A DNA stretch of 46,375 nt from Escherichia phage N15, in sequence record NC_001901.1. One strand, given 5' to 3'. How positions within the stretch are numbered: position 1 is the stretch's first letter; each line of letters opens with the position of its first letter. Of this stretch, positions 7,897 to 39,292 are shown one piece after another. Made by a program: the position numbers and the translations under genes. A model generated the notes under the pieces. That model made no database searches. It was not told where the DNA came from and was given only the letters and a program-made list of their open reading frames with translations.

Positions 7897-8451
7897 ATGT
7901 CATTAAAAGGCCTTGAACAGGCGATAGAAAACCTTAACAGCATCAGCAAAACGGCTGTCCCGCGTGCGTCGGCGCAGGCTGTTAACCGCGTGGCAAACCG
8001 GGCCGTCAGCCGCAGCGTGGCGGTCGTATCAAAAGATACGCGCGTACCGCGAAAACTGGTAAAGCAACGCGCCAGGGTGAAGCGTGCGACGGTCAATAAA
8101 CCTCGCGCGCTTATCCGTGTAAACCGGGGCAATTTACCGGCCATTAAACTCGGAACCGCAAGCGTGCGACTTTCCCGCAGAAAACGGGATAAGAAAGGGG
8201 CCAACAGCGTTCTGCGTATAGGGCCGTTCCGTTTTCCGGGCGGTTTTATCCAGCAACTTAAAAATGGCCGCTGGCATGTCATGAGGCGTACGTCAAAACC
8301 TCGTTACCCCATTGAAGTGGTCAGCATCCCGCTGGCAGCTCCATTAACTACGGCGTTTAAAGAAGAACTGCCAAAGCTCATGGAGTCAGATATGCCCAAA
8401 GAACTCCGGGCATCCCTTACCAACCAACTCAGGTTAATTCTGACACGATGA
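7897..8451 (+). CDS. tail completion protein (lambda gpZ-like)
   Basis: 184 aa; LEQA.ENL..ISKTAVP...KLVK.RARLKRATV resemble lambda Z. Confidence 0.85.
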   Translation: MSLKGLEQAIENLNSISKTAVPRASAQAVNRVANRAVSRSVAVVSKDTRVPRKLVKQRARVKRATVNKPRALIRVNRGNLPAIKLGTASVRLSRRKRDKKGANSVLRIGPFRFPGGFIQQLKNGRWHVMRRTSKPRYPIEVVSIPLAAPLTTAFKEELPKLMESDMPKELRASLTNQLRLILTR

Positions 8452-19854: not shown

Positions 19855-20020
19855 ATTTGTTATTAAAAATGCTATAAGGTAGCATTATGTCGCTGTTGTG
19901 AATCCACCTATGCGGATGGGCGTACAGCTGAGCTATCTCTGATGAGATCGTAAACGAGACCGCGGACTCTTTGGCTGGAGAGTTCACTGGGAGGCACCCA
20001 GCACAACAGCAACCAATTAC

Positions 20021-20047
20021 AAACCCTGCTTCGGCAGGGTTTTTTAT
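20021..20047 (+). terminator. rho-independent terminator
   Basis: accctgcttcggcagggt hairpin followed by T-run. Confidence 0.7.
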
Positions 20048-20065
20048 TGCCCAAAAGGAGGGCAT

Positions 20066-24830: not shown

Positions 24831-24994
24831 AGGAGAACATAAGCGCAGAACAATATGTATCTATTCCGGTGTTGTGTTCCTTTGTTATTCTGCTATTATG
24901 TTCTCTTATAGTGTGACGAAAGCAGCATAATTAATCGTCACTTGTTCTTTGATTGTGTTACGATATCCAGAGACTTAGAAACGGGGGAACCGGG

Positions 24995-26890
24995 ATGAGC
25001 AAGGTAAAAATCGGTGAGTTGATCAACACGCTTGTGAATGAGGTAGAGGCAATTGATGCCTCAGACCGCCCACAAGGCGACAAAACGAAGAGAATTAAAG
25101 CCGCAGCCGCACGGTATAAGAACGCGTTATTTAATGATAAAAGAAAGTTCCGTGGGAAAGGATTGCAGAAAAGAATAACCGCGAATACTTTTAACGCCTA
25201 TATGAGCAGGGCAAGAAAGCGGTTTGATGATAAATTACATCATAGCTTTGATAAAAATATTAATAAATTATCGGAAAAGTATCCTCTTTACAGCGAAGAA
25301 TTATCTTCATGGCTTTCTATGCCTACGGCTAATATTCGCCAGCACATGTCATCGTTACAATCTAAATTGAAAGAAATAATGCCGCTTGCCGAAGAGTTAT
25401 CAAATGTAAGAATAGGCTCTAAAGGCAGTGATGCAAAAATAGCAAGACTAATAAAAAAATATCCAGATTGGAGTTTTGCTCTTAGTGATTTAAACAGTGA
25501 TGATTGGAAGGAGCGCCGTGACTATCTTTATAAGTTATTCCAACAAGGCTCTGCGTTGTTAGAAGAACTACACCAGCTCAAGGTCAACCATGAGGTTCTG
25601 TACCATCTGCAGCTAAGCCCTGCGGAGCGTACATCTATACAGCAACGATGGGCCGATGTTCTGCGCGAGAAGAAGCGTAATGTTGTGGTTATTGACTACC
25701 CAACATACATGCAGTCTATCTATGATATTTTGAATAATCCTGCGACTTTATTTAGTTTAAACACTCGTTCTGGAATGGCACCTTTGGCCTTTGCTCTGGC
25801 TGCGGTATCAGGGCGAAGAATGATTGAGATAATGTTTCAGGGTGAATTTGCCGTTTCAGGAAAGTATACGGTTAATTTCTCAGGGCAAGCTAAAAAACGC
25901 TCTGAAGATAAAAGCGTAACCAGAACGATTTATACTTTATGCGAAGCAAAATTATTCGTTGAATTATTAACAGAATTGCGTTCTTGCTCTGCTGCATCTG
26001 ATTTCGATGAGGTTGTTAAAGGATATGGAAAGGATGATACAAGGTCTGAGAACGGCAGGATAAATGCTATTTTAGCAAAAGCATTTAACCCTTGGGTTAA
26101 ATCATTTTTCGGCGATGACCGTCGTGTTTATAAAGATAGCCGCGCTATTTACGCTCGCATCGCTTATGAGATGTTCTTCCGCGTCGATCCACGGTGGAAA
26201 AACGTCGACGAGGATGTGTTCTTCATGGAGATTCTCGGACACGACGATGAGAACACCCAGCTGCACTATAAGCAGTTCAAGCTGGCCAACTTCTCCAGAA
26301 CCTGGCGACCTGAAGTTGGGGATGAAAACACCAGGCTGGTGGCTCTGCAGAAACTGGACGATGAAATGCCAGGCTTTGCCAGAGGTGACGCTGGCGTCCG
26401 TCTCCATGAAACCGTTAAGCAGCTGGTGGAGCAGGACCCATCAGCAAAAATAACCAACAGCACTCTCCGGGCCTTTAAATTTAGCCCGACGATGATTAGC
26501 CGGTACCTGGAGTTTGCCGCTGATGCATTGGGGCAGTTCGTTGGCGAGAACGGGCAGTGGCAGCTGAAGATAGAGACACCTGCAATCGTCCTGCCTGATG
26601 AAGAATCCGTTGAGACCATCGACGAACCGGATGATGAGTCCCAAGACGACGAGCTGGATGAAGATGAAATTGAGCTCGACGAGGGTGGCGGCGATGAACC
26701 AACCGAAGAGGAAGGGCCAGAAGAACATCAGCCAACTGCTCTAAAACCCGTCTTCAAGCCTGCAAAAAATAACGGGGACGGAACGTACAAGATAGAGTTT
26801 GAATACGATGGAAAGCATTATGCCTGGTCCGGCCCCGCCGATAGCCCTATGGCCGCAATGCGATCCGCATGGGAAACGTACTACAGCTAA
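24995..26890 (+). CDS. telN: protelomerase (telomere resolvase, tyrosine-recombinase-like)
   Basis: 631 aa starting MSKVKIGELINTLVNEVEAIDASDRPQGDK, recognised as N15 TelN; acidic C-terminal tail; adjacent to telRL. Confidence 0.95.
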   Translation: MSKVKIGELINTLVNEVEAIDASDRPQGDKTKRIKAAAARYKNALFNDKRKFRGKGLQKRITANTFNAYMSRARKRFDDKLHHSFDKNINKLSEKYPLYSEELSSWLSMPTANIRQHMSSLQSKLKEIMPLAEELSNVRIGSKGSDAKIARLIKKYPDWSFALSDLNSDDWKERRDYLYKLFQQGSALLEELHQLKVNHEVLYHLQLSPAERTSIQQRWADVLREKKRNVVVIDYPTYMQSIYDILNNPATLFSLNTRSGMAPLAFALAAVSGRRMIEIMFQGEFAVSGKYTVNFSGQAKKRSEDKSVTRTIYTLCEAKLFVELLTELRSCSAASDFDEVVKGYGKDDTRSENGRINAILAKAFNPWVKSFFGDDRRVYKDSRAIYARIAYEMFFRVDPRWKNVDEDVFFMEILGHDDENTQLHYKQFKLANFSRTWRPEVGDENTRLVALQKLDDEMPGFARGDAGVRLHETVKQLVEQDPSAKITNSTLRAFKFSPTMISRYLEFAADALGQFVGENGQWQLKIETPAIVLPDEESVETIDEPDDESQDDELDEDEIELDEGGGDEPTEEEGPEEHQPTALKPVFKPAKNNGDGTYKIEFEYDGKHYAWSGPADSPMAAMRSAWETYYS

Positions 26891-26927: not shown

Positions 26928-27063
26928 TGAGGCCTGTCCCTACCCATCCCCTGCAAGGGACGGAAGGATTAGGCGGAAACTGCAGCTGCAACTACGGACA
27001 TCGCCGTCCCGACTGCAGGGACTTCCCCGCGTAAAGCGGGGCTTAAATTCGGGCTGGCCAACC

Positions 27064-27858
27064 CTATTTTTCTGCAATCGCTGGCGATGTTAGTTTCGTG
27101 GATAGCGTTTCCAGCTTTTCAATGGCCAGCTCAAAATGTGCTGGCAGCACCTTCTCCAGTTCCGTATCAATATCGGTGATCGGCAGCTCTCCACAAGACA
27201 TACTCCGGCGACCGCCACGAACTACATCGCGCAGCAGCTCCCGTTCGTAGACACGCATGTTGCCCAGAGCCGTTTCTGCAGCCGTTAATATCCGGCGCAG
27301 CTCGGCGATGATTGCCGGGAGATCATCCACGGTTATTGGGTTCGGTGATGGGTTCCTGCAGGCGCGGCGGAGAGCCATCCAGACGCCGCTAACCCATGCG
27401 TTACGGTACTGAAAACTTTGTGCTATGTCGTTTATCAGGCCCCGAAGTTCTTCTTTCTGCCGCCAGTCCAGTGGTTCACCGGCGTTCTTAGGCTCAGGCT
27501 CGACAAAAGCATACTCGCCGTTTTTCCGGATAGCTGGCAGAACCTCGTTCGTCACCCACTTGCGGAACCGCCAGGCTGTCGTCCCCTGTTTCACCGCGTC
27601 GCGGCAGCGGAGGATTATGGTGTAGAGACCAGATTCCGATACCACATTTACTTCCCTGGCCATCCGATCAAGTTTTTGTGCCTCGGTTAAACCGAGGGTC
27701 AATTTTTCATCATGATCCAGCTTACGCAATGCATCAGAAGGGTTGGCTATATTCAATGCAGCACAGATATCCAGCGCCACAAACCACGGGTCACCACCGA
27801 CAAGAACCACCCGTATAGGGTGGCTTTCCTGAAATGAAAAGACGGAGAGAGCCTTCAT
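27064..27858 (-). CDS. antirepressor with N-terminal Bro-N domain
   Basis: IRVVLVGGDPWFVALDICAALNIANPSDALRKLD is a typical Bro-N signature; RBS GGGGAGG. Confidence 0.75.
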   Translation of the reverse strand: MKALSVFSFQESHPIRVVLVGGDPWFVALDICAALNIANPSDALRKLDHDEKLTLGLTEAQKLDRMAREVNVVSESGLYTIILRCRDAVKQGTTAWRFRKWVTNEVLPAIRKNGEYAFVEPEPKNAGEPLDWRQKEELRGLINDIAQSFQYRNAWVSGVWMALRRACRNPSPNPITVDDLPAIIAELRRILTAAETALGNMRVYERELLRDVVRGGRRSMSCGELPITDIDTELEKVLPAHFELAIEKLETLSTKLTSPAIAEK

Positions 27859-28085
27859 TGCGCCTCCCCGGATTTCAGCTGCTCAGAAAGGGACAGGGAG
27901 CAGCCGCGAGCTTCCTGCGTGAGTTCGCGCGCGACCTGCAGAAGTTCCGCAGCTTCCTGCAAATACAGCGTGGCCTCATAACTGGAGATAGTGCGGTGAG
28001 CAGAGCCCACAAGCGCTTCAACCTGCAGCAGGCGTTCCTCAATCGTCTCCAGCAGGCCCTGGGCGTTTAACTGAATCTGGTTCAT
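27855..28085 (-). CDS. small protein in antirepressor operon (76 aa)
   Basis: RBS GAGG 5 nt upstream; overlapping start/stop with neighbours. Confidence 0.55.
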   Translation of the reverse strand: MNQIQLNAQGLLETIEERLLQVEALVGSAHRTISSYEATLYLQEAAELLQVARELTQEARGCSLSLSEQLKSGEAQ

Positions 28086-28246
28086 GCGATCACCTCGCTG
28101 ACCGGGATACGGGCTGACAGAACGAGGACAAAACGGCTGGCGAACTGGCGACGAGCTTCTCGCTCGGATGATGCAATGGTGGAAAGGCGGTGGATATGGG
28201 ATTTTTTGTCCGTGCGGACGACAGCTGCAAATTTGAATTTGAACAT
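28082..28246 (-). CDS. small protein (about 54 aa), first gene of antirepressor operon; start uncertain
   Basis: AGGA RBS 9 nt before ATG at 28246; longer ORF to 28384 runs into the terminator. Confidence 0.35.
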   Translation of the reverse strand: MFKFKFAAVVRTDKKSHIHRLSTIASSEREARRQFASRFVLVLSARIPVSEVIA

Positions 28247-28411
28247 GGTATGCATTCCTATCTTGTATAGGGTGCTACCACCAGAGTTGAGAATCTCTAT
28301 AGGGGTGGTAGCCCAGACAGGGTTCTCAACACCGGTACAAGAAGAAACCGGCCCAACCGAAGTTGGCCCCATCTGAGCCACCATAATTCAGGTATGCGCA
28401 GATTTAACACA

Positions 28412-28489
28412 CAAAAAAACACGCTGGCGCGTGTTGTGCGCTTCTTGTCATTCGGGGTTGAGAGGCCCGGCTGCAGATTTTGCTGCAGC
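28412..28489 (-). ncRNA. candidate small regulatory RNA / attenuator leader: promoter (TTGACG-18-TAGAGT) followed about 75 nt later by intrinsic terminator
   Basis: -35 at 28525-28520, -10 at 28501-28496, hairpin aacacgc/gcgtgtt + U-run at 28435-28412 on - strand; N15 immA and P4/P1 immunity RNA paradigm. Confidence 0.45.
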
Positions 28490-28613
28490 GGGGTAACTCT
28501 ACCGCCAAAGCAGAACGCACGTCAATAATTTAGGTGGATATTTTACCCCGTGACCAGTCACGTGCACAGGTGTTTTTATAGTTTGCTTTACTGACTGATC
28601 AGAACCTGATCAG

Positions 28614-28964
28614 TTATTGGAGTCCGGTAATCTTATTGATGACCGCAGCCACCTTAGATGTTGTCTCAAACCCCATACGGCCACGAATGAGCCACTGGAA
28701 CGGAATAGTCAGCAGGTACAGCGGAACGAACCACAAACGGTTCAGACGCTGCCAGAACGTCGCATCACGACGTTCCATCCATTCGGTATTGTCGACGACC
28801 TGGTAAGCGTATTGTCCTGGCGTTTTTGCTGCTTCCGAGTAGCAATCCTCTTCACCACAAAGAAAGTTACTTATCTGCTTCCAGTTTTCGAACCCTTCTT
28901 CTTTGAGCCGCTTTTCCAGCTCATTCCTCCACAAAACAGGCACCCATCCTCTGCGATAAATCAT
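28614..28964 (-). CDS. hypothetical membrane protein (last gene of repA operon)
   Basis: RBS AAAGGA; hydrophobic C-terminal segment LWFVPLYLLTIPFQWLI. Confidence 0.5.
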   Translation of the reverse strand: MIYRRGWVPVLWRNELEKRLKEEGFENWKQISNFLCGEEDCYSEAAKTPGQYAYQVVDNTEWMERRDATFWQRLNRLWFVPLYLLTIPFQWLIRGRMGFETTSKVAAVINKITGLQ

Positions 28965-28966
28965 GA

Positions 28967-29296
28967 TTATTTGTCCTTTAAATAAGGCTGTAGAACTGCA
29001 AAATCGCTCTCGTTCACATGCTGTACGTAGATGCGTAGCAAATTGCCGTTCCATCCCTGTAATCCACCTTCTTTGGAAAGATCGTCCTTGACCTCACGAA
29101 GAACCTTATCCAATAGCCCTGCGGCACAAGAAATTGCCTGCTCTGGATCAGCAAATTCATATTGATTAATAGGTGATTGCCACACACCAAAAACAGGAAT
29201 CATCTTTTCGGCTAAACGCCTCTCCTGTTCTTTCTTAATCTCAAGTTGTAAGCGGACCAGCTCACCATCCATCATTTTTTGTAGATCATGCGCCAC
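28967..29296 (-). CDS. hypothetical protein
   Basis: Tightly packed with neighbours; RBS-like GGGGGTGA. Confidence 0.5.
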   Translation of the reverse strand: MAHDLQKMMDGELVRLQLEIKKEQERRLAEKMIPVFGVWQSPINQYEFADPEQAISCAAGLLDKVLREVKDDLSKEGGLQGWNGNLLRIYVQHVNESDFAVLQPYLKDK

Positions 29297-29885: not shown

Positions 29886-32800
29886 TTATATCGCCACGGC
29901 TTGCCGCTGGCTTAGAAACGCTTTCAGCAGCCTTATTTCGCGTACTGATAGCAGGTCCATAAATTCGGTCATGTACAGCGAGGCGAACGTTCTCGCGATG
30001 CTGGCCACTGGCCACAGGCGTACCGCCTCCATTTCGGTTGCTGGCAACGCGTTCTCCGCCCACGCCTCCGGTACCGCCACCGGGATAGCCTCCAGTGCCT
30101 GGATAATTACTGATTGTGGGGCGTCCGGAACGTGCTCTGTTTTGGATCGAGGGTTACCATGTATATCTATATTTAGATCCAAATCGCGATCCACTTCGAT
30201 GGTGGTTTTTTCCACCTTACGTGCGTGAATTGATAAACCGGCCTCGCGGCGCTTCTCCACGATATTCATGAGGAACTCGACCGAGTCCGGGTCAATGGAA
30301 CGCATCGTGGGGCGTGCATCGCCGTCTCTGGCGCGTCTGGTCTTACTGGATAGCCCCATAGACTCCAGGATGCCTATGCAGAGGTCTGCAGGCGCTTTCT
30401 TCTTGCCTTTCTCTGTGTTGAAGCCGCCGATGCGTAAAACGTTGTTTAGCAGATCGCGCCGTTCCGGCGTGAGCAGGTTATCTCTGGCGCGTTTGAGGGC
30501 GTCCATGTCTGCTTCACCTTCCAGGGTTTTTGGATCGATACCGCAGTCGCGGAAGTACTGCTGCAGCGTCGCCGATTTGAGGGTGTAGAAACCACGCATG
30601 CCTATCTCAACAGCAGGGGTCGATTTCACTCGGTAATCGGTTATGGCCGGGAATTTAGCCTGGAACTCTGCGTCGGCCTGTTCCCGCGTCATGGCCGTAG
30701 TGACGAACTGCTGCCATCTTCCGGCAACGCGATAAGCGTAGGTAAAGTGAATCAACGCTTCTTCACGGTCAAGGCGACGGGCGGTTATCTCATCCAGCTG
30801 CATGGTTTCAAACAGGCGCACTTTTTTCAGGCCGCCGTCGAAATAGAATTTTAACGCCACCTCGTCGACATCCAGCTGCAGCTCCTTTTCGATGTCCCAG
30901 CGGACCAGCTGGGCCTGCTCATCCAGGGACAGGGTGCGTTTTTTTATCAACTCATCGTGTTCGGCCTGGTCAGGAGTATCGACACTCAGGTGGCGCTCCA
31001 TAAGCTGCTCAAAGACCAGTTCACGGGCTTCTTTACGTAAATCCTTACCGATGCTGTTTGCAAGCGCGTCGGTGGCCATAGGCGCGACCTGATAGCCATC
31101 ATCATGCATGATGCAAATCATGTTGCTGGCATAATCATTTCTGGCCGATGCCTCGAGCGCGGCGGCTTTAATTTTGAGCTGCATGAATGAAGAGTTAGCC
31201 ACGCCGAGTGAAATTCGGTCACCGTCAAAGACAACGTCTGTCAGCAGCCCGGAGTGGCCAGCCGTTTCGAGCAAGGCCTGCGCGTAGGCGCGTTTGATTT
31301 TTTCCGGATCGGTTTCACGTTTACCGCGAAGCTTGTCGAAACCGATAATGTATTCCTGAGCTGTACGGTCGCGGCGCAGCATCTGGATGGCGTCGCTGGG
31401 GACCACTTCGCCGCAGAACATGCCGAAATGGCGGTGGAAGTGTTTCTCCTCAATCGATACACCTGAAGATATCGACGGGCTGTAGATGAGGCCGTCATAT
31501 TTTTTCACCATCACTTTAGGCTGGTTGGTGAAATCGTCGACTTCCTTCTCCTGTTTGTTTTTCTGGTTAACGCAGAGAAACTTTTTGTCAGGGAACTGTA
31601 GTCTCAGCTGCATGGTAACGTCTTCGGCGAACGTCGAACTGTCGGTGGCCAGCATGATTCGTTCGCCGCGTTGCACTGCAGCGATAACCTCGGTCATGAT
31701 CCGATTTTTCTCGGTATAAAATACGCGGATAGGCTTGTTGGTTTCGCGGTTGCGAACGTCGACCGGGAGTTCAATCACGTGAATTTGCAGCCAGGCAGGT
31801 AGGCCCAGCTCCTCGCGTCGCTTCATCGCCAGTTCAGCCAGGTCAACAAGCAGATCGTTGGCATCGGCATCCACCATAATGGCATGCTCTTCAGTACGCG
31901 CCAGCGCGTCGATAAGCGTGTTGAATACGCCTACCGGGTTTTCCATCGCACGCCCGGCCAGAATGGCACGCAGGCCCTGTGTTGCTTCATCGAAGCCGAA
32001 GAAGTCATGCTGGCGCATCAGCGGTTGCCAGCAGCCTTTAAGTATGGAGTTGATGCAAATAGTCAGCTTGTTGGCATATGGCGCCATTTCCTGATAGCCG
32101 GGATCCTGATAATGCAGAATGTCGGCTTTCGCGCCTTTCCCTTCGGTCATCATTTCATGCAGGCCGCCTATCAGGGATACGCGGTGCGCGACGGAAACGC
32201 CACGCGTGGACTGCAGCATCAGTGGACGCAGGAGGCCTGTCGATTTACCCGACCCCATCCCGGCGCGGACAATAACGATGCCCTGCAGCTGTGCGGCGTA
32301 TGTCATCACCTCATCGGTCATCCTGGAGGTTTCAAACCGTTTGTAAGTGATGTGTGACGGGCGAAGGTTCGGGTTGGTGATGCGTTCACTGAACGAACGT
32401 GATGTTTGCGCGGCACGGCATTTGCGATTCAACCGGCGCGTAATGTGATCTTTAACGGTACCGTTATAAATTTCTGCGATACCCATATCCCGCAGCGTGC
32501 TGCTGAAAAGGCGCATAAGTTCTTTCGGGCTGTTTGGTACCGGGCATGTCAGCATGCCAATATCAACGGCGCGAAGCAGTTCTTTGGCAAAAGTGCGTCT
32601 GTTCAGACGCGGGAGAGTACGCAGCTTATTCAGCGTGATCGACAACAGGTCGGTTGCACGGCTCAGATGATTTCTCGTTAACTGGCGAGCGACTTCCTTC
32701 AGCCCTCTCAGGCTGTGCAGGTCGTTAAAATCGCTGCATTCCAGCTCAGGGTCATCCTCAAAAGTTGGGTAAACACATTTGACGCCGGAAAACTTCTCCA

Positions 32801-33860
32801 TGATGTCGAATCCGGTGCGGAGGCCTGTGTTGCCTTTTCCTTCAGCTGAGGATTTGCGGTCGTTATCGAGAGCGCAAGTGATTTGCGCAGCCGGGTACAT
32901 GTTCACCAGCTGCTCGACAACGTGAATCATGTTGTTAGCGGAAACCGCAATGACTACCGCGTCAAAGCGTTTTTTCGGGTCGTTTCTGGTCGCCAGCCAG
33001 ATGGATGCCCCGGTGGCGAAACCCTCTGCAGTCGCAATTTTTTGCGCCCCCTGCAGGTCGCCAATAACAAAGCATGCACCGACGAAATCACCGTTAGTGA
33101 TGGCGCTGGTCTGGAACTTGCCACCATTCAGATCGATACGTTGCCAGCCAACAATCCGCCCGTCTTTTCTTCCGTCCAGGTGGGACAGAGGTATCGCCAT
33201 GTAAGTTGTTGGTCCACGGCTCCATTTCGCACTGTCGTGACTGGTCACGCGACGTATATCACAAGCGCCAAATACGTCACGAATTCCCTTTTTTACCGCA
33301 TAAGGCCAGGAGCCATCTTCAGCTGGCGAATGTTCCCAGGCGCGATGGAAAGCCAACCATCCAAGCAGGCGTTCCTGCTCCATCTGATTGTTTTTTAAAT
33401 CATTAACGCGTTGTTGTTCAGCTCGGAGGCGGCGTGCTTCAGCCTGGCGCTCCATGCGTGCACGTTCTTCTTCCGGCTGAGCGACCACGGTCGCACCATT
33501 CCGTTGCTGTTCACGGCGATACTCCGAAAACAGGAATGAAAAGCCACTCCAGGAGCCAGCGTCATGCGCTTTTTCAACGAAGTTAACGAAAGGATAACTG
33601 ATGCCATCCTTGCTCTGCTCAAGGCGTGAATAGATTTCCACACGGCCTTTAAGGCTCTTCTGCAGAGCTTCCGGGGAGGAATTATTGTAGGTGGTATAGC
33701 GCTCTACACCACCGCGCGGATTGAGCTGAATCTTATCAGCACACGCAGGCCAGTTGATACCGGCCATCTTCGCCAGCTCAGTCAGCTCATCACGTGCCGC
33801 GTCAAGCAGTGAAAACGGATCGCTGCCAAAGCGCTCCGCGTAGAATTCTTGTAAGGTCAT
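29886..33860 (-). CDS. repA: replication protein RepA, multidomain primase-helicase
   Basis: 1324 aa; Walker A GMGSGKST; size and position (downstream of cB) as N15 RepA. Confidence 0.9.
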   Translation of the reverse strand: MTLQEFYAERFGSDPFSLLDAARDELTELAKMAGINWPACADKIQLNPRGGVERYTTYNNSSPEALQKSLKGRVEIYSRLEQSKDGISYPFVNFVEKAHDAGSWSGFSFLFSEYRREQQRNGATVVAQPEEERARMERQAEARRLRAEQQRVNDLKNNQMEQERLLGWLAFHRAWEHSPAEDGSWPYAVKKGIRDVFGACDIRRVTSHDSAKWSRGPTTYMAIPLSHLDGRKDGRIVGWQRIDLNGGKFQTSAITNGDFVGACFVIGDLQGAQKIATAEGFATGASIWLATRNDPKKRFDAVVIAVSANNMIHVVEQLVNMYPAAQITCALDNDRKSSAEGKGNTGLRTGFDIMEKFSGVKCVYPTFEDDPELECSDFNDLHSLRGLKEVARQLTRNHLSRATDLLSITLNKLRTLPRLNRRTFAKELLRAVDIGMLTCPVPNSPKELMRLFSSTLRDMGIAEIYNGTVKDHITRRLNRKCRAAQTSRSFSERITNPNLRPSHITYKRFETSRMTDEVMTYAAQLQGIVIVRAGMGSGKSTGLLRPLMLQSTRGVSVAHRVSLIGGLHEMMTEGKGAKADILHYQDPGYQEMAPYANKLTICINSILKGCWQPLMRQHDFFGFDEATQGLRAILAGRAMENPVGVFNTLIDALARTEEHAIMVDADANDLLVDLAELAMKRREELGLPAWLQIHVIELPVDVRNRETNKPIRVFYTEKNRIMTEVIAAVQRGERIMLATDSSTFAEDVTMQLRLQFPDKKFLCVNQKNKQEKEVDDFTNQPKVMVKKYDGLIYSPSISSGVSIEEKHFHRHFGMFCGEVVPSDAIQMLRRDRTAQEYIIGFDKLRGKRETDPEKIKRAYAQALLETAGHSGLLTDVVFDGDRISLGVANSSFMQLKIKAAALEASARNDYASNMICIMHDDGYQVAPMATDALANSIGKDLRKEARELVFEQLMERHLSVDTPDQAEHDELIKKRTLSLDEQAQLVRWDIEKELQLDVDEVALKFYFDGGLKKVRLFETMQLDEITARRLDREEALIHFTYAYRVAGRWQQFVTTAMTREQADAEFQAKFPAITDYRVKSTPAVEIGMRGFYTLKSATLQQYFRDCGIDPKTLEGEADMDALKRARDNLLTPERRDLLNNVLRIGGFNTEKGKKKAPADLCIGILESMGLSSKTRRARDGDARPTMRSIDPDSVEFLMNIVEKRREAGLSIHARKVEKTTIEVDRDLDLNIDIHGNPRSKTEHVPDAPQSVIIQALEAIPVAVPEAWAENALPATEMEAVRLWPVASIARTFASLYMTEFMDLLSVREIRLLKAFLSQRQAVAI

Positions 33861-38945: not shown

Positions 38946-39272
38946 ATGGCACTGACACCCGCAGAACGGCAAAGGATCCGCCGAGAGAAGCTAAAAAAGC
39001 AAGGAACCACCAGGCGTGATTGGGTTCTGGAGCCGGATGAGCTGCGTATGCTCGGCGAAATTTGCATACAGCGTCGTCCGGGGCGAGAGCCGTATTCTGA
39101 AAATGAGGTTATTGGCCTCCTGATCCGCAAGAACTACAAAGAGCTGCAAAAGAAACTTTCCGGTTCGTGTTCGCGGTGTGGGAAGCAACTTCCGGTAGCC
39201 GATTGCCTGTTTGATGGCGAAGGTACATGCCAGCTGACCACTCTCAGATTGAAGCTGGCCATTAAAGCGTGA
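38946..39272 (+). CDS. hypothetical protein with C-terminal CxxC
   Basis: RBS AGGAG before ATG 38946. Confidence 0.5.
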   Translation: MALTPAERQRIRREKLKKQGTTRRDWVLEPDELRMLGEICIQRRPGREPYSENEVIGLLIRKNYKELQKKLSGSCSRCGKQLPVADCLFDGEGTCQLTTLRLKLAIKA

Positions 39273-39292
39273 CTGGTCACGGAGGGTTAAAA

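Follow-up and report, generated by a model that had tools for sequence, protein, structure and literature searches.

The immA operon of phage N15: a target-bearing leader of the isrK type ahead of a C4-family antisense RNA

The region analyzed here contains Pa, the promoter of the immA (anti-immunity) operon icd-antA-antB of phage N15, followed by a structured leader; it is read from the minus strand of a 46,375-bp stretch of DNA, the whole N15 genome (hereafter, the window). A preliminary description, drawn up from the letters and a list of open reading frames, had likened the architecture to that of the N15 immA region, and database comparison shows that it is this region: a megablast search with positions 27000-29100 returned the deposited N15 fragments U63086 and U63085 at 99.8-100% identity, and telomere phages of Klebsiella, Enterobacter, and Escherichia gave 77-84% matches to the same interval. 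The elements follow one another on the minus strand in the order Pa, leader, CA RNA, icd, antA, antB. The immA promoter region lies between these three genes and an upstream ORF of 146 aa, which ends at 28614. The list of open reading frames also places a protelomerase-like ORF at 24953-26890 on the plus strand and a RepA-like ORF of 1324 aa at 29886-33860 on the minus strand. The plus strand of the promoter-terminator region holds only a 44-aa ORF (28394-28528) and a mirrored terminator stem that lacks a proper T-run, and we treated both as incidental. Coordinates of all features are collected in Table 1.

Table 1. Features of the immA promoter, leader, antisense RNA, and operon of N15 (positions are those of the window).
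Feature	Position	Strand	Details
Pa -35 hexamer TTGACG	28520..28525	-	TTGnnn equally placed in 20/20 related loci
Pa -10 hexamer TAGAGT	28496..28501	-	18-nt spacer; TAnnnT-type hexamer ending 6 nt before hairpin 1 in 20/20 loci
Leader RNA, isrK / P4 seqA-t1 / c4-a1b1 type	28413..28489	-	Rfam isrK, 62.4 bits at 28489-28414
Leader hairpin 1 (GCUGCAG / CAAAAU / CUGCAGC)	28470..28489	-	5/7 pairs changed on both sides in 19 loci; 96% of cells paired
Leader hairpin 2	28453..28469	-	Loop carries site a1; loop position agrees with the P1 annotation and Weinberg 2010
Site a1, UCUCAAC	28463-28457	-	In the loop of leader hairpin 2; complementary to a'
Site b1, ACAAGAAG	28441..28448	-	In the single-stranded linker ahead of the terminator; complement of the b' loop
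Outer helix, GCGCAC (28441-28436) with GUGUGU (28412-28407)	28407..28441	-	RNAalifold; encloses the terminator hairpin and U-run
Intrinsic terminator	28413..28435	-	Stem 28435-28429/28424-28418, loop GCCA, U-run 28419-28413
C4-family antisense RNA gene (N15 'CA RNA')	28301..28388	-	Rfam C4 (RF01695), 78.8 bits; gathering score 45
b' element, CUUCUUGUA	28344-28336	-	Loop of C4 RNA hairpin 2
a' element, GUUGAGAA	28330-28323	-	Multiloop junction of C4 RNA
Site a2, UUCUCAAC	28286..28293	-	Second a' target, upstream of icd
Element GGUGGUAGC	28274..28282	-	Can pair with the 3' strand of the stem that closes C4; in the alternative hairpin so formed, the loop holds a2
Site b2, UACAAGA, with the icd Shine-Dalgarno AGGA	28256..28267	-	b2 28267-28261; AGGA 28259-28256
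icd	28082..28246	-	54 aa, opens the operon, cell-division-inhibitor-like; residues 2-49 match NCBIfam NF033153 phage_ICD_like (E 1.2e-18)
antA	27855..28085	-	76 aa, 4-nt overlap with icd stop; from the ORF list
antB	27064..27858	-	264 aa, 4-nt overlap with antA stop; Pfam Bro-N, E 4.2e-19

The three ORFs that the preliminary description had placed in the operon, one of them with a Bro-N domain, are icd, antA, and antB, and the Bro-N match belongs to the last. AntA was without a family match in searches with protein family models. Notes in the phiKO2 record liken its homologues to N15 Icd, AntA (the antirepressor), and AntB (the auxiliary antirepressor); by these notes, AntA, 76 aa long, would be the antirepressor and AntB, which carries the Bro-N domain, its auxiliary. 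The 1996 GenBank record of the N15 immA DNA (U63086, the same DNA as ours) contains a 100-aa ORF, 28384-28082, as the CDS of a 'cA secondary immunity repressor', a protein that overlies both the C4-family RNA and icd. The Icd-like model covers only residues 48-95 of that ORF, so the true start of icd is the ATG at 28246, 55 nt beyond the C4-type RNA. ORF calls in this place, the old 100-aa 'cA' CDS as well as the 'ash family protein' of relatives, are artefacts overlying RNA genes.

Pa is a constitutive-type sigma-70 promoter. It is present as first described, TTGACG-18-TAGAGT at 28525-28496 of the minus strand, and its geometry is conserved in the 20 related loci introduced below: in every one of them (20/20), the end of a -10-like hexamer lies exactly 6 nt ahead of hairpin 1, and TTGnnn stands 17-18 nt upstream of the hexamer. 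The promoters that share this arrangement include P51b of P1, as annotated in its record, and PLE of P4. Judged from promoter geometry, transcription would start near 28489, ~7 nt past the -10 hexamer. A pattern scan over 5 kb found 2 promoter-like sites where 4.0 +/- 2.0 were expected, so the bare promoter pattern does no better than chance; the same scan found 13 terminator-like sites against 4.5 +/- 2.4 expected, and the bare terminator pattern was likewise judged not significant. Since patterns of either kind are not significant by themselves, support was taken from homology and covariation. A palindrome, CGTGAC-NN-GTCACG (28549-28562), sits upstream of the -35 hexamer at a distance of about 23 bp. 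We considered it as an N15 SopB centromere repeat and rejected the assignment, the published repeats being GTGCGACC-NN-GGTCGCAC (PMC7205306).

Scanned against Rfam at gathering thresholds, the whole 46,375-bp window gave three matches, two of which, isrK and C4, are at immA. The isrK match (RF01394; 62.4 bits against a gathering score of 50, E 4e-11 for the whole window) runs through the full model, positions 1-77, and spans exactly the interval from promoter to terminator, with the terminator as the model's third hairpin. In a permissive scan, c4-a1b1 (RF03163, the a1 and b1 targets of C4 antisense RNA) was a near miss at 28502-28449 (42.4 bits against a cut-off of 46.7; E 1.9e-9 for a 501-nt search). 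The leader is the target-bearing side of the system, a member of the isrK / P4 seqA / P1 a1b1 family, and not the repressor RNA.

Folding of the RNA, which the preliminary description had proposed as a check, yields hairpin 1, hairpin 2, and the terminator (-26.7 kcal/mol, z -2.7). The 7-bp hairpin with a U-run that had been read at 28435-28412 is there: a stem of AACACGC/GCGUGUU is followed by seven U in a row, with a hairpin energy of -10.0 kcal/mol, and the stem co-varies, with 92% of cells paired across loci and three of six pairs changed on both sides. The interval between promoter and terminator is ~78 nt. A transcript that began near 28489 and ended here would be about 73-77 nt long, in agreement with the ~75 nt first given. 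Taken together, the leader helices, terminator included, have 91.6% of cells paired in 19 sequences, compared with 24-55% in slid controls, and 11 of their pairs are changed on both sides, compared with 4.9 +/- 1.4 in shuffles, none of which (0/500) reaches 11. The alignment also contains an outer helix (83% of cells paired across loci; three of six pairs changed on both sides). Because it encloses the terminator and its U-run, this helix could arise only once the terminator has been read through. Its place is past the 3' end of the isrK model, and we found no description of it in the literature searched.

Past the terminator, 25 nt beyond the isrK match and ahead of icd, begins an 88-nt gene for a C4-family antisense RNA. 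The preliminary description had the ORFs of the operon begin after the terminator; it thereby passed over the intervening RNA gene, which lies almost wholly outside the coordinates it covered and which encodes the actual regulator RNA. The C4 segment takes the fold of its family, in which a long stem closes over two inner hairpins (-43.3 kcal/mol, z -4.0), and none of 200 shuffled sequences was as stable. Judged by sequence, this N15 CA RNA is the counterpart of P1 c4 and P4 CI.

The elements a' and b' of the CA RNA each have a target on either side of the gene. In the leader, a1 and b1 are perfect complements of a' and b' (7 nt and 8 nt, respectively) in the correct order. Downstream, the pairing of b' with b2 runs on over the Shine-Dalgarno sequence of icd with one bulged U, the AGGA being 9 nt before the ATG, and b2 adjoins a GGAG/AGGA motif in every locus compared. 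In dinucleotide shuffles, both ordered sites arose by chance in 7 of 100,000 cases for the leader and in 0 of 100,000 for the downstream pair. The leader sites have the same sense as a2 and b2; a1/b1 and a2/b2 would therefore compete for the same a'/b', and the short RNA cannot pair with the icd sites. Between a2 and b2, the element GGUGGUAGC tracks the C4 3' strand in phiKO2, P88, ARM81ld, mEp460, P4, and LPM4, as judged by eye and without a formal score. A comparable overlap with hairpins downstream is noted in the Weinberg 2010 supplement.

To place the locus among its relatives, a distant blastn search with 28230-28540 was used, which returned 87 phage records and 261 plasmid records. For comparison, we fetched 18 diverse loci together with P4 and P1. 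The 18 and P4, a panel that takes in telomere phages, P88, mEp460, a phage of the Stx type, two Aeromonas phages, and plasmids, were scanned jointly, and each of these 19 gave a C4 match; in 18 of them an isrK match lies upstream, at a distance of 18-35 nt (107 nt in P4); the sole exception is an Arsenophonus plasmid, in which the Rfam scan gave no isrK match above threshold. In six relatives, c4-a1b1 scores above its cut-off.

Across 20 loci, P1 and P4 included, a', b', and both copies of their targets co-vary. By an eye count, the loci contain about 12 different 'a' and about 16 different 'b' sequences, and wherever an a or a b has changed, all three copies are altered together. The two parts reassort independently: N15 has the b of Ecl53EVA with a different a, and the a of YDC107 with a different b. 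Summed over the loci, cognate duplexes reach -805.6 kcal/mol, compared with -513.4 +/- 22.7 kcal/mol for permuted partners, and 0 of 20,000 permutations equaled the cognate sum. Because this three-way complementarity co-varies across loci, the sequence comparison indicates that pairing of the C4-type RNA with the leader and with the region upstream of icd is under selection, and that N15 is a typical member of the group.

The preliminary description had likened the locus to the RNA-controlled anti-immunity loci of P4 (CI RNA) and of P1 and P7 (c4). The type of locus was rightly recognized; the roles within it were not, since the short RNA is of the isrK type and the counterpart of CI and c4 is the gene at 28388-28301. 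A published account treats IsrK and C4 as structural homologues of P4 seqA and CI and states that N15, P1, and P7 use similar systems (PMC3632133). For N15 itself, the title of Ravin, Svarchevsky and Deho 1999 (Mol Microbiol 34:980) has the antirepressor controlled 'by a small processed RNA'.

P4 (NC_001609) has the same order of elements, with isrK at 8692-8615 and C4 at 8507-8420, and shares with N15 the promoter geometry of PLE, a two-part complementarity on both sides of the antisense RNA, and, downstream of cI, a 51%-identical match to N15 Icd. The two differ in the spacer between leader and antisense RNA (107 nt in P4, 25 nt in N15) and in the a and b sequences themselves, which are GUGAGAA and UUCACAGG in P4 but UCUCAAC and ACAAGAAG in N15. 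They differ also in what is controlled: in P4 the system is the primary immunity and acts over replication genes, whereas in N15 it holds an antirepressor operon off.

The order is again the same in the immI locus of P1/P7; in P1 (NC_005856) the annotation reads P51b, a1, b1, c4, a2, b2, icd, ant. There, too, a C4-family RNA is followed by icd and then by the antirepressor, and b2 is at the ribosome-binding site of icd. Its C4 scores 68.8 bits and its c4-a1b1 51 bits, whereas its leader reaches only 35.1 bits with isrK, below the cut-off of 50. Between b1 and c4, P1 has a terminator-like hairpin whose loop is 12 nt long and whose U-run is interrupted. Upstream, P1 has another promoter, P51a, under the control of C1, and we found no equivalent of it in N15. 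The antirepressors differ as well, being Ant1/2 in P1 and the 76-aa AntA with the Bro-N protein AntB in N15.

Salmonella Gifsy-1 isrK, the founding member of the isrK family, was compared by its published description (Hershko-Shalev 2016, PMC4825925). IsrK ends at its own Rho-independent terminator, and read-through gives an orf45-anrP antirepressor mRNA together with a processed downstream RNA of ~80 nt, STnc1160; the long RNA adopts two conformers, the short IsrK activates translation in trans, and the co-expressed downstream RNA does not behave as a simple termination factor (PMC4825925). A short terminated RNA, a read-through mRNA with a processed RNA, and alternative conformers between leader and downstream sequence are common to both loci, the N15 counterparts being predicted from sequence and folding. 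Activation in trans by the short RNA was demonstrated by experiment in Gifsy-1, whereas for N15 it is suggested by analogy. The first ORFs are placed differently: orf45 overlaps the downstream RNA, whereas in N15 the C4-type RNA is followed by icd at a distance of 55 nt.

The explanation that we consider quite likely as a whole combines a Pa leader, a processed CA RNA, a block of icd, feedback through the leader, and a decoy. It builds on what is observed at the locus, namely its anatomy, the family membership of its RNAs, the co-varying three-way complementarity, and the possibility that pairing of b' with b2 occludes the Shine-Dalgarno sequence. The ~77 nt transcribed from near 28489 fold into two hairpins and the terminator, with a1 in the loop of hairpin 2 and b1 in the linker. 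Termination would catch most polymerases and give a short RNA of the isrK type; the remainder would go on to transcribe the 88-nt CA RNA, which would then be cut from the transcript. The a' and b' elements of the CA RNA would pair with a2 and b2 and cover the Shine-Dalgarno sequence, leaving icd untranslated, as in P1 and P4, and, by coupling or polarity, the lack of icd translation would silence antA and antB as well, whose ORFs overlap, again on the model of P1 and P4. Pairing of a'/b' with a1/b1 in the nascent leader would lead to more termination, by analogy with t1 of P4. Through this leader feedback, the CA RNA may limit its own synthesis and tighten repression, and the released short RNA may titrate the CA RNA as a decoy, as IsrK does in Gifsy-1. 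Three observations weigh against parts of this scheme: masking of a1/b1 leaves the predicted terminator essentially unaltered and so lends no support to enhanced termination, the read-through RNA is predicted to prefer pairing of its leader with C4 in cis (both below), and the downstream RNA of Gifsy-1, when co-expressed, was no simple termination factor.

Several of these steps have precedents in the better-known systems. RNase P excises the C4/CI-type RNA from the operon transcript in P1 and P4, and Rho-dependent polarity operates in P1. CI RNA reportedly raised termination at P4 t1 in vitro (Briani et al. 2000, cited in PMC4825925), and earlier work on P1 and P4, which includes Citron and Schuster 1990 and Heinrich et al. 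1995, is reported to provide part of the basis for processing, the icd block, polarity, and feedback. By extension from P1, from P4, and from the published N15 title, the CA RNA of N15 would likewise be processed, block translation, and promote termination; on processing, the annotation of P1 bears as well. The preliminary description had held that expression of the antirepressor would need either readthrough of the terminator or processing of the short transcript. Read-through is indeed required; the regulator, however, would come from the read-through transcript and not from the short one.

Other readings turn chiefly on what the short leader RNA does. That the ~75-nt RNA from promoter to terminator is itself the antisense repressor of the c4/CI type has in its favor a size near that of c4 (77 nt in P1) and its position as the first stable-looking RNA of the operon. 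We give this idea hardly any credence: the RNA matches the isrK and c4-a1b1 types and not C4, Rfam scans gave no C4 match within 28489-28412, the C4 model matches 28388-28301 instead, and the conserved sites of the leader, having the same sense as the copies at the icd ribosome-binding site, would not pair with them. A more serious contender, possible if still on the unlikely side and compatible with the explanation preferred above, makes the short RNA mainly an activator in trans, an anti-antisense RNA such as IsrK is in Gifsy-1. Its a1/b1 would bind the CA RNA, or the C4 segment of the read-through mRNA, and so free the icd ribosome-binding site; the terminator would govern how much decoy is made relative to repressor RNA, and the operon would be switched on. 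The leader does score above the isrK family threshold, its sites do compete in the same sense for a'/b', and trans activation has been shown experimentally for IsrK (PMC4825925). The Weinberg 2010 supplement describes the a1b1 motif and recalls a competition of a1/b1 with a2/b2 for c4, as proposed for P1. Folding is also in keeping with such an activator: in the read-through RNA, pairing of the leader with C4 in cis is predicted at -103.1 kcal/mol and the C4 fold at -98.6 kcal/mol, and the two conformers, 4.5 kcal/mol apart, are near-isoenergetic in the manner of the structure A/B model of Gifsy-1. Against it stands the repressive role of the P4 seqA region, which is needed to establish immunity (PMC3632133). 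Moreover, a lysogen would make decoy and repressor constitutively from one promoter, so that a switch needs an extra input, and we found none.

The terminator might instead be a plain constitutive attenuator that does no more than reduce transcription of the operon, with a1/b1 serving only in cis, for example in folding or processing of the CA precursor, and with no RNA-RNA control in trans at the leader. When a1/b1 were masked in equilibrium folding to mimic bound CA RNA, the predicted probability of the terminator moved from 0.937 to 0.947 with no antiterminator visible, so that its formation appears independent of the state of these sites; among relatives treated in the same way, a clear gain was seen only in mEp460 (0.40 to 0.87) and LPM4 (0.18 to 0.95). 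For CA-dependent termination itself, this result decides neither way. Of the folds predicted for read-through RNA, the one with leader and C4 paired in cis has the lowest energy, and this conformer, if formed in vivo, would compete with maturation of the CA RNA. The independent reassortment of a and b with co-variation argues for a selected pairing, although pairing in cis would also fit, and the effect that CI RNA is said to have on t1 termination in vitro speaks against an attenuator that is merely constitutive. On balance we regard this reading as improbable.

The preferred explanation, in which the CA RNA represses icd and feeds back on its leader, admits a tentative extension that we would put forward with considerable doubt: the leader terminator as a ratio-setting device, an RNA-only feedback circuit that sets the antirepressor threshold in N15. 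Each transcription event at Pa could yield either a short a1/b1 decoy or one CA RNA together with one target mRNA; CA RNA would promote termination when bound to the nascent leader and would itself be sequestered by free decoy. The outer helix might mark read-through RNA for processing. In the literature searched, we found no report of a ratio-setting circuit or of a role of the outer helix for N15.

The locus is already known, immA having been published in 1999 and isrK and C4 being curated Rfam families. A reading of the raw sequence made without tools thus recovered a real and experimentally studied regulatory cassette, and the present analysis corrects its anatomy by assigning the part of repressor RNA to the C4-type element past the terminator and that of a target-bearing leader to the short RNA. 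Counterpart systems have been studied experimentally in P1, P4, and Gifsy-1, and among the roles known from them, the candidates for the leader and terminator of N15 are feedback on termination or action as a decoy.

RNA that reads through the intrinsic terminator of the isrK-type leader, transcribed from the immA operon promoter Pa, and only such RNA, can form an outer helix that encloses both the terminator hairpin and its U-run. This helix falls beyond the limits of the Rfam isrK model (RF01394), and compensatory changes preserve it in P4, PA2, ARM81ld and P1. An alternative pairing is possible farther downstream, between GGUGGUAGC (28282-28274) and the C4 closing stem's 3' strand, which gives a hairpin whose loop holds a2, a target site of the C4-type RNA. 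As judged by eye, the downstream copy tracks the C4 strand in phiKO2, P88, ARM81ld, mEp460, P4 and LPM4; in N15, no U-run is present 3' of the hairpin.

Upstream of Pa lies the perfect 14-bp palindrome CGTGAC-NN-GTCACG, which recurs in two further perfect copies in N15. Seven telomere-phage relatives carry it at the identical distance upstream of the promoter, and among the loci compared, P1, P4, P88 and the lambdoid loci have no counterpart at this promoter-upstream position. Two identities considered for the palindrome were ruled out: the SopB centromere repeat, which reads GTGCGACC-NN-GGTCGCAC (PMC7205306), and, by location, the described CB operators. The region between the upstream ORF and Pa also contains a tandem repeat, CTGATCAG...CTGATCAG, which has two Dam sites (GATC), as well as an imperfect inverted repeat of 10 nt.

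Features of N15 and related loci (N15 coordinates unless stated)
Feature	Coordinates	Strand	Remarks
Palindrome, copy 1	28549-28562		~23 bp upstream of Pa -35
Palindrome, copy 2	33236-33249		within repA
Palindrome, copy 3	39268-39281		directly ahead of small plus-strand ORF
Tandem repeat	28590-28612	minus	directly 3' of 146-aa ORF stop
Inverted repeat	28551-28560 with 28592-28601
Outer helix, GCGCAC / GUGUGU	28407-28441	minus	around terminator
Alternative hairpin	28274-28311	minus	C4 closing-stem 3' strand with GGUGGUAGC
'cA secondary immunity repressor' CDS	28082-28384	minus	100 aa, in U63086
'ash family protein' calls	L015 1577-1741; L016 1470-1625, 1646-1819		related plasmids
STnc100 match	19863-20048	plus	72.5 bits (cut-off 47)
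Icd match	P4 (NC_001609) 8180-8332	minus	tblastn, 51% identity

Protein annotations overlap the RNA genes of these loci, both in N15, where the CDS belongs to a 1996 GenBank record of an N15 fragment, and in related plasmids, where the calls cover the isrK- and C4-type RNAs. Elsewhere in the window, Rfam detects STnc100, a gammaproteobacterial sRNA, in a match whose 3' end is a hairpin followed by a U-run.

The N15 Icd protein, encoded by the first ORF of the operon, has a tblastn match in P4 that lies downstream of the CI RNA, within the old 'cI gene product' CDS. Because of this match, N15 and P4 also have in common a protein downstream of the antisense RNA.
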